Shown in pieces: positions 54,240-57,382 of a stretch of 64,000 bases of DNA (within the stretch, counting starts at the first letter, position 1; each line of letters starts with the position of its first letter). The position numbers and the translations under genes are program-made. The notes below the pieces were generated by a model. That model saw nothing but the letters and a program-made list of their open reading frames with translations. It was not told the origin of the DNA and did no database searches. The stretch comes from Gammaproteobacteria bacterium (GTDB lineage: Bacteria; Pseudomonadota; Gammaproteobacteria; RBG-16-57-12): NCBI GenBank assembly GCA_021647245.1, contig JAKIVC010000011.1, positions 1,470 through 65,469 of the forward strand, read 5' to 3'.

Positions 54240-54881
54240 TTATAGTCCCGTCACAATATTTTCGGCGCTATTGACCACATTCAAGGTAGCCATTACCTCT
54301 TTGGCCATCTGATGCGCCATAAACAGACTATGCCCTGGATGAAGCACACCAAAATCCTGGTAGCTCAACACCGCCAGTGACAGCTCCACTTTGGCTTGAA
54401 TCGGATTTAGTGAGGGGTCATAGGCATCCTCAGTGATACTGAAACTGGTAATCCGCACCGGTAACACCCGCTTCGCTCCCCAGGCAAAGAGTAAAAATGG
54501 CGCCTCTGTGGGCAGGATTTCGATGGAGCCGATCGCAGAGAGAATGGTATTAGCAATCACCGCCGCCGACTTTGGATAGAGCATCATCTCCAACGCTGAA
54601 AGAGCGGGGTAGATACCCATGGTGGTCGCCAGCGGGTTTGCCTCGGCCAACTGATCAGCTGCATCAATTTCGATACTGAGGGTAATTGTCTCCTTAGGTG
54701 GGCCAGTGAGCCGCTGTACCTCACCCGGATCACCATCACCACCGGCGGCACGAGCCTCCAGGCGGCGCGTCATGGTATTCGGGTTGTACTGAAACACCAC
54801 CACGCTGGCCAGTGGATTAAAAATGTCCACACCTACCAAAGCGCCTTTAATCAAACGCGGAGAGCGGGAGAGCCCGGTCAT
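54240..54881 (-). CDS. candidate tube-initiator protein (P2 gpU / T4 gp48-like position)
   Basis: 213 aa; call based mainly on the conserved U-X-D gene order upstream of the hub; weak pattern similarity to gpU. Confidence 0.35.
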   Translation of the reverse strand: MTGLSRSPRLIKGALVGVDIFNPLASVVVFQYNPNTMTRRLEARAAGGDGDPGEVQRLTGPPKETITLSIEIDAADQLAEANPLATTMGIYPALSALEMMLYPKSAAVIANTILSAIGSIEILPTEAPFLLFAWGAKRVLPVRITSFSITEDAYDPSLNPIQAKVELSLAVLSYQDFGVLHPGHSLFMAHQMAKEVMATLNVVNSAENIVTGL

Positions 54882-57382
54882 TGCGGCAACCCTGTCATTT
54901 TCAGTGCCCAGCGGTTCAATTTGCCCTGATCAGCACCCGCATGATCCGACACCCTCAATCGCCAGTCACCCTTGATTGACTCACCCCGTAAAGCGTGTAA
55001 AGCGGTCGTGCTCACCATGGTGTAGGTTCTAATAATATTATTTGCCGAACCACCTAAGCGGTTATGCAGCAAAACTGTGCTGTTTTCGGCTGAAATCAGT
55101 TCGACAACCAAATCACCGATATAGGTGTGGGTGATATCCAGTTCAACGGCAAGCGTATCGAGCTGAGCTGTTCCGGCGACCGTCAGAACACGTTCAATGC
55201 CATTTCGCCTGTTATCAGGAATGGTGATGCCAGGGCTCTCTTCAACAACAACTGAAGAGCCTGTTTCTCCAGATACTTCCAGAGACCAGCGCTTGAGGCG
55301 ACCTCGGTCAACCGATGCCAAATCCTGAACGTGAAGCTGCCACTCCCCCGCCACCGGCTCACCCGACAAGGCGTACAAAGCCGGTGCAGAGCGCATGTCA
55401 AACTCGGCACGCAGATCATTCGCACCGCCTCCGGCCCGGTCATGCAGTACCACGGAGGTACCAGAAGGTGAGGTTAACGTCACGCGCAGATCACCAATGT
55501 AGCTATGGGTAATATCAACACCAATCTTTATCTTACTGATCACAAAATCATCTTGGCTGGTGATTTTGTCTTTAATTCCCCTGGCGTTATTATCAGGAAT
55601 ACTTCTGTCTGGTGAAGAGTCAGCACGGAACTCCAGCCCTCCTGTTGTTGACTGATTCCGACTCAGCGCTTCCGCGACAGCCGCTTGCGCATCGACCTTA
55701 CCGTGACCAAACCACGGACTCCAGCTGCCCTCAGCATCACCATTATCAGCAAAGACACCGCTATCAAACGGTGCAATGGGCGAGACATCCCAGCGGGTAT
55801 CTTCATCAAAATTGGCTGGTGGTGTTTGCGGATAGTCGTCAAAATCCAGATCCTTGGCGGCGGTACCTTTGAGTAACGCAACCACCTCCTGCGCACTCAG
55901 TGCCGGATTTGCCGAGACCACCAGCCCAGCCACACCGGCAACCAGCGGCGTGGCGCTGGAGGTGCCACCAAAGGTATCGGTCACACCACCACTATTACCG
56001 GTGGTGGTGGTAATACCCAAGCCCCTCACTGTCATCCGATAATAGGTGTGTGAATTACTGCTCGGCGCACAAAGTGAAATACCGGGGCCGTAATTAGAAT
56101 AGTGACTGCGTTTGGCGGTGCTCGCCAATGCAGCAATATGCATCACCCCCGGTATACCCACCAGGTTATTCCGGAAAGTGCGTGTCTTTTTCACCCCGAC
56201 CCACACCAGTGAGCCGCCCTGCACGGCCACACCATTGTCATAGGGCACCTCTTCAGGTGCCGTATAATCAATCAAACAATTCTCATTACCCGCCGCCCAT
56301 AAGAAGACGATGCCTTTACCCCGTCGTCCGCCAGTTTGCGCCAATGTTTTAATGCGGTTGATAACAGGCAGTGACCACATACTGATCGGAACGCCACCCC
56401 AGGAGTTGGACATCACATCCGCTTTATCCGCGATATAGTCCAGTGCTGTCAGCAATTTTGAATCACTAATAAAGAGAGAAGGCCCCGAGGACTCCCATTG
56501 AATGGGTAACAACTGGCATCCCGGCGCCGCACCCACCGTAAGCACTGCATCGATCTCACCACCAATCACCCCGTTACAGGATGTGCCATGGTTTGCCCCC
56601 GGGATATACATCTCATCGGCCTCAGCATCAATATCCACCGCCGTGACAAGACGTGTACCGCGAAAGTAGCCCCAACCGGCAAACTTATCGGCAGAATCAA
56701 AATCGAAGTGATCCAGCTTGCAACCATCATCCGTCACTGCTATCACCACCTCATCACTACCGAATCCATCCAGCAATCGCCACGCATCCTCACACAGAGA
56801 GCTGGATCGGGAGTCATAAGCTGGGTGATTGAAATTAGTATGCAGATGCCATTGCCTTGCATAGTCCGGATCCAGAGGAGCCGCAAACTGGTACTTGCTC
56901 ATACGCTGGTTCAGATCATGCTCGGCCAGATCAACCAAAGGCTCCTCCTCCATCAACTTCACCACCAGCTTGACTGGGTTCATACCGGTGTGATTGGTCA
57001 GTTGGAACAGATAATCCCGTTCACTATACGAAGCTCTTTTCATCAAACCATAACGACCCGCAAAAGCATCCACTTGTTCGTCTGCAAGCGTCTCTTTGAA
57101 AGCTACAAAAACCCGATCGGTAATCAGGAATTCCGCACCACTTTCCACCTCACAATAGGCATGGTGAGTTGGCGCAACACCACGACAACGCGCCATCAAA
57201 CCATCTAAATCTGCCGCACTGGTTTTAATCCGGGTTGATGCAGAAGAGACCTGCTCGGATGCTACAATCGCCGCATCATCCAGAGTATCCGGCAGGGACC
57301 TGACGACCAGTTGATCGGGGCTTTTTTCCAGCCCGATCTTTTGGCCGCAGCGGTAGGTGTAGGTCTTGTTTTTTTCGCTCAT
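54878..57382 (-). CDS. subtilisin-like serine peptidase (S8) with two C-terminal proprotein-convertase P-domains; no signal peptide
   Basis: 834 aa; catalytic triad contexts VIAVTDDG (D), GANHGTSCNGVIGG (H), GGTSSATPLVAGVAGL (S); two ~90-aa repeats (...ITHSYIGDLRVTLTSPSGTSVVLHDRAGGGANDL... / ...ITHTYIGDLVVELISAENSTVLLHNRLGGSANNI...) match the kexin/furin P-domain; N-terminus MSEKNKTYTYRCGQ is not a Sec/Tat signal. Confidence 0.85.
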   Translation of the reverse strand: MSEKNKTYTYRCGQKIGLEKSPDQLVVRSLPDTLDDAAIVASEQVSSASTRIKTSAADLDGLMARCRGVAPTHHAYCEVESGAEFLITDRVFVAFKETLADEQVDAFAGRYGLMKRASYSERDYLFQLTNHTGMNPVKLVVKLMEEEPLVDLAEHDLNQRMSKYQFAAPLDPDYARQWHLHTNFNHPAYDSRSSSLCEDAWRLLDGFGSDEVVIAVTDDGCKLDHFDFDSADKFAGWGYFRGTRLVTAVDIDAEADEMYIPGANHGTSCNGVIGGEIDAVLTVGAAPGCQLLPIQWESSGPSLFISDSKLLTALDYIADKADVMSNSWGGVPISMWSLPVINRIKTLAQTGGRRGKGIVFLWAAGNENCLIDYTAPEEVPYDNGVAVQGGSLVWVGVKKTRTFRNNLVGIPGVMHIAALASTAKRSHYSNYGPGISLCAPSSNSHTYYRMTVRGLGITTTTGNSGGVTDTFGGTSSATPLVAGVAGLVVSANPALSAQEVVALLKGTAAKDLDFDDYPQTPPANFDEDTRWDVSPIAPFDSGVFADNGDAEGSWSPWFGHGKVDAQAAVAEALSRNQSTTGGLEFRADSSPDRSIPDNNARGIKDKITSQDDFVISKIKIGVDITHSYIGDLRVTLTSPSGTSVVLHDRAGGGANDLRAEFDMRSAPALYALSGEPVAGEWQLHVQDLASVDRGRLKRWSLEVSGETGSSVVVEESPGITIPDNRRNGIERVLTVAGTAQLDTLAVELDITHTYIGDLVVELISAENSTVLLHNRLGGSANNIIRTYTMVSTTALHALRGESIKGDWRLRVSDHAGADQGKLNRWALKMTGLPQ

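Follow-up and report, generated by a model that had tools for sequence, protein, structure and literature searches.

A leaderless kexin-like S8 protease with tandem P-domains in the cargo slot of an extracellular contractile injection system locus

Results

A protease gene within an eCIS locus

We analyzed a 64,000-nt stretch of a gammaproteobacterial assembly (GenBank GCA_021647245.1, contig JAKIVC010000011.1, positions 1,470 to 65,469; hereafter, the window), in which the minus-strand genes around a protease gene form an extracellular contractile injection system (eCIS) locus. The genes of this locus run in the order cap, ATPase, four small open reading frames (ORFs), protease, tube-like gene, and baseplate/spike genes, placing the protease inside it. 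The protease ORF (54878..57382, minus strand) starts with ATG and encodes an 834-aa leaderless S8 protease of the kexin/furin type, identical to NCBI entry MCF6218057.1 from a gammaproteobacterial metagenome-assembled genome. The start cannot be moved upstream to give a longer form, because an in-frame TGA stands 4 codons 5′ of the ATG. Another NCBI annotation of the same gene starts 129 codons later and yields a 705-aa product from which most of the conserved prodomain is removed. Conservation across 99 homologues extends to these first 129 residues, so the 834-aa form is the correct one.

The protease resembles a furin-like zymogen

Pfam places Peptidase_S8 (PF00082) at residues 210-510 (E = 5.8e-34), followed C-terminally by two P_proprotein domains (PF01483; E = 4.1e-42). 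Taking Pfam, alignment, and fold together, the catalytic domain covers residues 176-575 (55658..56857, minus strand) and begins with the motif DPxYxxQWHLH. The Asp-His-Ser triad in the order of Peptidase S8 and the oxyanion Asn are present within the motifs DDG (D218), HGT (H265), GNEN (N366), and GTS (S475), and these four residues are invariant in 75 family sequences. Structure prediction with AlphaFold2 (AF2) on a 99-sequence alignment gave a model with pLDDT 84.5 and pTM 0.77, which was taken in place of an unusable model (pLDDT 49) built with only 16 close homologues. By Pfam and this model, the tandem P-domains occupy residues 583-831 (54890..55636, minus strand; approximately 583-706 and 710-831), each modeled as a β-sandwich with pLDDT 80-95. 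Residues 1-162 (56897..57382, minus strand) are confidently folded, their last strand carrying a conserved EHDLNxR motif (154-160), and a low-confidence linker (165-175) joins them to the catalytic domain. This N-terminal domain is conserved, and a search of the first 200 residues of four family members against Pfam at E ≤ 10 gave no match; with its fold matches to pro-subtilisin and fervidolysin, we read it as a prodomain.

Comparison of the model with the PDB by Foldseek ranked furin first (8e-24), followed by Kex2 (4.6e-23) and the Aeromonas protease ASP, with unautoprocessed pro-subtilisins, pro-Tk-subtilisin, and fervidolysin at lower ranks. A profile-to-PDB sequence search agrees with this ranking (furin, 3.6e-15). 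The protein is thus read, on its predicted structure, as a kexin/furin-like zymogen lacking a leader, in which a prodomain and a flexible junction precede the catalytic domain and two P-domains. A candidate autoprocessing site lies near DLNxR, at Arg160, and the DDG motif together with this conserved arginine at the putative junction may hint at cleavage after basic or dibasic residues.

Neither the protease nor the 75 family members contain a hydrophobic N-terminal stretch, a twin-arginine (RR) motif, or a transmembrane-like segment by a Kyte–Doolittle heuristic, used here rather than SignalP, in which 10-aa windows across the first 70 residues reached a maximum of ≤1.56. A sequence-only reading that preceded this analysis had described an 834-aa leaderless S8 protease with tandem P-domains, and the Pfam and hydropathy results bear this description out. 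No signal peptide emerges on reassignment of the start, as the TGA blocks extension and the N-terminus is not hydrophobic. Identity with a type VII secretion system (T7SS) mycosin was considered and rejected: the NCBIfam model TIGR03921 scored 71.2 bits against a cutoff of 278.75, and the NCBIfam matches to mycosin and dentilisin were all below threshold. PADLOC returned a generic subtilase match only.

The protease is coupled to the baseplate module

The protease stop codon and the ATG of the following gene (54240..54881, minus strand) share 4 nt, ATGA (...ccgcaATGA...), and an identical overlap is found in the closest relative (locus L164, 87% identity). The 4-nt overlap reported in the sequence-only reading is therefore real, and it couples the protease operonically to the baseplate module. 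That reading had called the downstream gene gpU-like. We found no sign of gpU; the gene instead matches Pfam CIS_tube weakly (22.8 bits, below the cutoff of 27) and is better described as a CIS_tube-like (Afp5-like) gene, the first of the baseplate module, here termed tube2. On its other side, the protease is separated from the upstream genes by a gap of 118 nt that contains a repetitive extragenic palindromic (REP) hairpin. A promoter and terminator scan of 54000-59300 returned nothing beyond what shuffled sequence gave, and the gap itself (57383-57500) had no promoter-like or terminator-like site above chance.

The interval holding the protease is a hypervariable cargo slot

The upstream boundary of the interval is formed by a Pvc16_N cap/terminator gene (61230-62456, minus strand) and an eCIS AAA+ ATPase gene (winged-helix and AAA domains; 59107-61233, minus strand), both identified by Pfam. 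To see whether the protease is a constant component of this eCIS lineage, we scanned metagenomes with tube2 as anchor and obtained 80 loci whose tube2 is 55-88% identical to that of the window; presence of the protease was counted in the 39 loci with at least 1.5 kb of sequence upstream of tube2. A member of the protease family was present in just one of the 39 (L097), and one other (L112) holds a different S8 protease of 592 aa. A short contig outside this set (L084) carries a further family member. In relatives lacking the protease, the ATPase-to-tube2 interval comprises one to eight genes of very different sizes, which differ between close relatives and encode mostly proteins with an eCIS_core (DUF4157) leader and OmpA, PG-binding, or VanY ends. 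In protease-bearing loci, the cargo includes fusions of eCIS_core to Ntox16, OmpA, and Annexin domains.

Because gene content and size differ in this way between relatives, and most products carry an eCIS_core leader, the ATPase-to-tube2 interval is a hypervariable cargo slot; the sequence-only reading had placed the protease where eCIS loci carry payloads. Within the slot, the protease stands at the 3′ edge and is optional. Its presence in one of 39 relatives, within so variable an interval, makes it an accessory cargo-slot gene and not a core maturation protease, so that the alternative offered by the earlier reading, a particle maturation protease, does not hold as a general role among the closest eCIS relatives.

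Several slot genes of the relatives deserve description. The eCIS_core leader is fused to VanY, a D-Ala-D-Ala carboxypeptidase, in L107 (7518-9959) and to four Annexin repeats in L032 (7689-9986). The leader that precedes the core domain in DUF4157 cargo is modular, with the pattern LQRKCACG...C..C.KK...LQRKL.IG...DPLE.EADRVA..V...IQR...PASV.RVL.S.G.P. in loci L006-L161. L112 (2990-4768 and 7339-9924) combines a TPR-CHAT protease directly upstream of tube2 with the 592-aa S8 protease, which has a fervidolysin-like prodomain, in the slot. Proteases without DUF4157 may thus be recurrent slot occupants.

The protease family is widespread and linked to eCIS in about half of its loci

All proteins recovered by two homologue searches were near full length (about 830 aa), were 50-87% identical, and had the same two Pfam domains. 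Clustered at 90% identity, the family forms more than 200 groups, and a species-level genome collection contains 117 relatives; no homologue was found in a phage collection. Locus analysis used the best 80 of the 117 relatives, which belong to the Gamma- and Betaproteobacteria, Desulfobacterota, Nitrospirota, Acidobacteriota, Bacteroidota, Cyanobacteria, Verrucomicrobiota, Campylobacterota, and the archaeon Methanothrix. These 80 loci were searched by tblastn with the eCIS proteins of the window, and a locus was termed standalone when its flanks, of at least 5 kb on the upstream and 3 kb on the downstream side, had no eCIS gene. Among the 50 informative species-level loci, 24 are embedded in eCIS, 3 have one eCIS gene, and 23 are standalone; a further 25 contigs have flanks too short to judge. 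A local eCIS_core hidden Markov model (HMM) added DUF4157 neighbors in three short contigs and found none in the standalone loci. Homologues in other eCIS loci, for which the sequence-only reading had proposed a search, therefore exist, but the protein is not the unusual one that reading took it for, given the size of the family and the standalone position of about half of its informative loci, in which no eCIS gene lies within 10 kb.

Where eCIS linkage is present, placement is regular. The protease lies directly upstream of tube2, in the same orientation and with a gap of less than 250 nt, in 22 of the 23 loci that hold both genes. Other placements are directly after the ATPase (L034) and just past the end of the locus (Halomonas L059 and L060), and in L023, L069, and L081 the protease is paired with eCIS_core genes in other, rearranged settings. 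One or more eCIS_core cargo genes are present in 21 of 23 protease-bearing loci; in L047, the slot holds nothing but the protease. The next closest relative after L164, which is the closest in the genome collection (80% identity), is standalone among ordinary metabolic genes. In a neighbor-joining tree, standalone members occupy the deep branches; the eCIS-linked ones form two main derived clades, among which further standalone members are nested. No protein of these loci is as conserved as the protease: its median identity to the window is 68%, versus 42-63% for the structural proteins, and its identity across loci does not track theirs.

Some settings outside eCIS loci are distinctive. In six standalone loci from several phyla (L044, L035, L076, L001, L074, and L080), NtrC-type sigma-54 activators or LuxR/GerE response regulators lie directly upstream of the protease. 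Megaplasmids of Bacillus cereus and B. thuringiensis encode a 575-580-aa homologue without P-domains (55-63% identity over residues 8-576); in L169 (B. thuringiensis pIS56-328), it lies at 11986-13728 in an insertion sequence (IS)-rich island with three other S8 peptidase genes. On a Chondrinema litorale plasmid (L170, 4725-14499), a full-length leaderless homologue stands right after a sigma/FecR-SusC-SusD set, an odd position for a protein without an export signal.

A cargo remnant and mobile elements lie in the slot of the window

All four small ORFs between the ATPase and the protease are on the minus strand. The first, a conserved 85-aa gene without a Pfam family (58853..59110), recurs in most loci of this eCIS lineage, overlapping the ATPase stop codon (e.g., L047, 9600-9857). 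It is followed by a 121-aa remnant of a DUF4157/eCIS_core cargo gene (58491..58856), which keeps the leader motif QAKLKIGQPGDKYELEADRVAEQVMRMP, has no core domain, and is 61% identical over 38 aa to an eCIS_core protein. With the leader motif kept and the core domain lost, this eCIS appears to have had its original toxin cargo destroyed. Next come a fragment of an IS66-family TnpA accessory-protein gene (58101..58412), recognized by family match, and a gene for a REP-associated tyrosine transposase (RAYT; 57501-58052; NCBIfam E = 2.5e-58). Two identical 21-nt REP hairpins (GTAGGGTGCGTTTTACGCACC; 57400-57420 and 58060-58080) flank the RAYT gene within direct repeats of about 100 nt. From this arrangement, the RAYT gene appears to have inserted into the IS66 TnpA fragment, within the cargo slot. 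The fragment and the RAYT gene separate the DUF4157 remnant from the protease, which is the sole intact slot gene in this window. The sequence-only reading had put the protease after the cap/ATPase and a DUF4157 gene; the slot location is right, but what it counted as a DUF4157 gene is only the 121-aa remnant without the eCIS_core domain.

Past tube2, the rest of the baseplate/spike module extends over 42323..54236 on the minus strand. Genes of 109 aa and then 376 aa are followed by those for a VgrG-OB spike (Phage_base_V; 52260-52793), a DUF4280 PAAR-like protein (51928-52251), and GPW_gp25 (51558-51938), by genes of 861 aa, 990 aa (Baseplate_J), and 762 aa in that order, and by a DUF6519 gene (42323-43699), the last of the module; the named families are Pfam assignments. 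The locus stops before sirB, birA, and coaX, and on the other side it runs past the window end at 64000. The Afp/PVC-like set is complete in the window except for sheath and main tube, which fall beyond that end; syntenic loci, for instance L003, have both (Phage_sheath_1, T4_gp19). Elsewhere in the window, a low-GC island at 8000-20000 (40-46% versus about 52% elsewhere) encodes glycosyltransferases, a DegT-family aminotransferase, and a GNAT/GT28 protein and is probably a horizontally acquired surface-polysaccharide cluster.

Discussion

The protease shares with furin (1P8J), Kex2 (2ID4), and Aeromonas sobria ASP (3HJR), members of or relatives to MEROPS S8B, the order prodomain, catalytic domain, P-domain. 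The DDG, HGT, and GTS motifs and the DPxYxxQWHL start of the mature enzyme are likewise common to them, and these three are its top matches in sequence and fold. It differs from them in lacking a signal peptide, in carrying two P-domains where they have one, in a catalytic domain of about 400 aa with insertions, and in a prodomain that, as modeled, is larger and two-lobed (about 160 aa) and has no Pfam match. The intracellular subtilisins of Bacillus (e.g., 7XR8) are also leaderless cytoplasmic subtilases, but at about 320 aa they have a short N-terminal extension, no P-domains or large prodomain, and only weak sequence matches to the protease. With the S8 maturation proteases of secretion systems (mycosins, Bordetella SphB1, and S8-PTS/BetaH; PMC9424270, PMC13556192), it has in common a genetic tie between an S8 enzyme and toxin export; unlike them, it is not a mycosin, has no membrane anchor or autotransporter, and is optional in its system. 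With eCIS-associated toxins (EATs), which are led by DUF4157, also known as PVC-metallopeptidase or eCIS_core (PMC8213781, PMC11297309, PMC3482391), it shares the ATPase-baseplate interval and patchy presence; DUF4157 neighbors accompany it in 21 of 23 homologous loci, but in this window only as the remnant. It differs from them in having no DUF4157 leader or domain, in being far more conserved, and in that half of its family is not linked to eCIS. We class it with the known eCIS-associated accessory or effector proteins, its leaderless double-P-domain kexin-like scaffold being the atypical part.

Among the proteases of PVC-system toxins, Table 1 of Zhang 2012 has an entry "Subtilisin" and says no more about it (PMC3482391). 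In Geller 2021 (PMC8213781), Danov 2024 (PMC11297309), and a 2026 RBD catalogue, with the supplements searched, no S8/P-domain protein is named as part of an eCIS or as an EAT. Among the texts searched, the entry in Zhang 2012 is the only prior trace of the protease.

We tentatively favor, as the leading possibility and well short of a firm assignment, a role for the protease as an accessory cargo-slot effector that leaves with the particle and is proteolytic on the target. Its gene would have been recruited into this eCIS lineage from a widespread standalone family. Under this reading, the zymogen would be made in the cytoplasm, co-transcribed and translationally coupled with the baseplate genes, and its own 160-residue prodomain would keep it inactive. 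It would leave the producer with the particle and not by Sec or Tat, being either packaged like other cargo or freed by cell lysis, and would then act as an effector on its target. The domain architecture, the intact active site, the missing leader, the operonic coupling, the location in the cargo interval (in L047 as its sole gene, here as its sole intact one), the facultative presence, and the recurrent linkage to eCIS and DUF4157 genes all point to such a role, as does the TPR-CHAT enzyme of L112, a non-DUF4157 protease in the same position. On these features, the protein may be packaged or delivered, and it may be toxic.

Several observations weigh against an effector. The protease has no eCIS_core/DUF4157 domain or leader motif, the only recognized mark of cargo in this lineage, and its N-terminus is folded, unlike a disordered tag for packaging. 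Its conservation above that of every structural protein is unlike that of the usual diversifying toxins, and a shuffled cassette would be strange in so fixed a place, at the slot's 3′ edge. Moreover, about half of the family is standalone, with settings that include the sigma-54/LuxR regulators, the SusC/SusD pair, and the Bacillus plasmid protease islands, which implies an ancestral role independent of eCIS.

The strongest competitor, which we consider rather unlikely, is a trans-acting convertase: the protease, in the producer or in the particle, would cleave the leaders of DUF4157 toxins, or another accessory protein, at basic sites. High conservation and a fixed position suit an enzyme with a conserved partner, and the kexin-like fold, the DDG motif, and the repeated basic (L/I)QR(K) motifs of the cargo leaders fit such a reaction; yet the great majority of related loci have the same leaders and motifs and no protease. 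Nearly all protease-bearing loci (21 of 23) have eCIS_core cargo, and the pairing persists away from structural genes in L081 and L023, but the protease is also kept where the slot has no intact DUF4157 cargo (L047 and this window), and the standalone half of the family has no DUF4157 gene within 10 kb. No site resembling the DLNxR junction recurs in the cargo. By analogy, the S8 maturation proteases of type V secretion (SphB1), T7SS (mycosin), and Gram-positive S8-polymorphic-toxin loci (PMC9424270) offer a precedent. Complementation, in which cargo would have lost the HExxH metallopeptidase motif of eCIS_core where the protease is present, was rejected: the motif is intact in 55 of 56 cargo proteins with the protease and in 68 of 74 without it.

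Two further comparisons of the cargo proteins were made and set aside. The pattern LN.R is found in 8 of 51 cargo proteins from protease-bearing loci versus 2 of 63 from the others, but at scattered, inconsistent positions. The k-mers DPLE and RKCAC are enriched in cargo leaders of protease-bearing loci; as loci lacking the protease share the same leader architecture, this enrichment probably reflects sampling and phylogeny.

We think it improbable that the protease is a regulated intracellular enzyme with no role in injection, captured repeatedly by a recombination-prone interval. The standalone deep branches of the tree would accord with this, as would the 80% identical relative among ordinary metabolic genes, the two-component or sigma-54 regulators adjoining family members in several phyla, and the mobile-element debris throughout the slot of the window. 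However, eCIS or DUF4157 genes contain or adjoin about half of the informative loci, against a frequency of eCIS loci of about 2% of genomes (1,249 of 64,756; PMC8213781), and the association recurs in rearranged loci and in no fewer than two separate clades. This enrichment, together with the conserved translational coupling and with the operonic spacing and shared orientation seen in 22 of the 23 loci, is difficult to square with pure hitchhiking, and the effector reading remains the one that we prefer. A role in lysis of the producer cell or release of particles, together with cell-wall hydrolases, is most improbable: in two unrelated settings, L002 (a Nitrosomonas eCIS locus) and L001 (a standalone Desulfosarcina locus), the gene just upstream of the protease encodes a VanY/M15 peptidase, but close relatives within Desulfosarcina already lack this adjacency, VanY is also known here as cargo through its fusion to an eCIS_core leader (L107), no holin-like gene was seen, and it is not evident how a protease in the cytoplasm would reach the wall.

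eCIS particles are under engineering for protein delivery, and the choice and action of non-DUF4157 cargo are poorly known. A large, conserved, leaderless protease with a fixed place in the slot, and sometimes its sole gene, could serve as a test case for cargo rules and protease effectors. A more far-reaching proposal, which we regard as doubtful, is that this furin-like cytoplasmic family, which spread with eCIS loci through archaea and bacterial phyla, represents a new class of payload that is delivered unfolded, refolds in the target with its own prodomain as an intramolecular chaperone, and cleaves target proteins at basic sites, or else the first dedicated trans-acting convertase to mature DUF4157-led cargo. 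If the protease does process cargo, eCIS would be a further secretion system to have recruited an S8 protease for maturation. Standalone members, half of the family, also point to an uncharacterized class of cytoplasmic kexin-like proteases in bacteria and archaea.

The genus table of Geller 2021 lists Neptunomonas as having eCIS in none of four genomes, and Neptunomonas qingdaonensis and N. japonica (L008 and L010) hold complete loci of the lineage described here. This eCIS lineage may therefore be under-detected in that survey.

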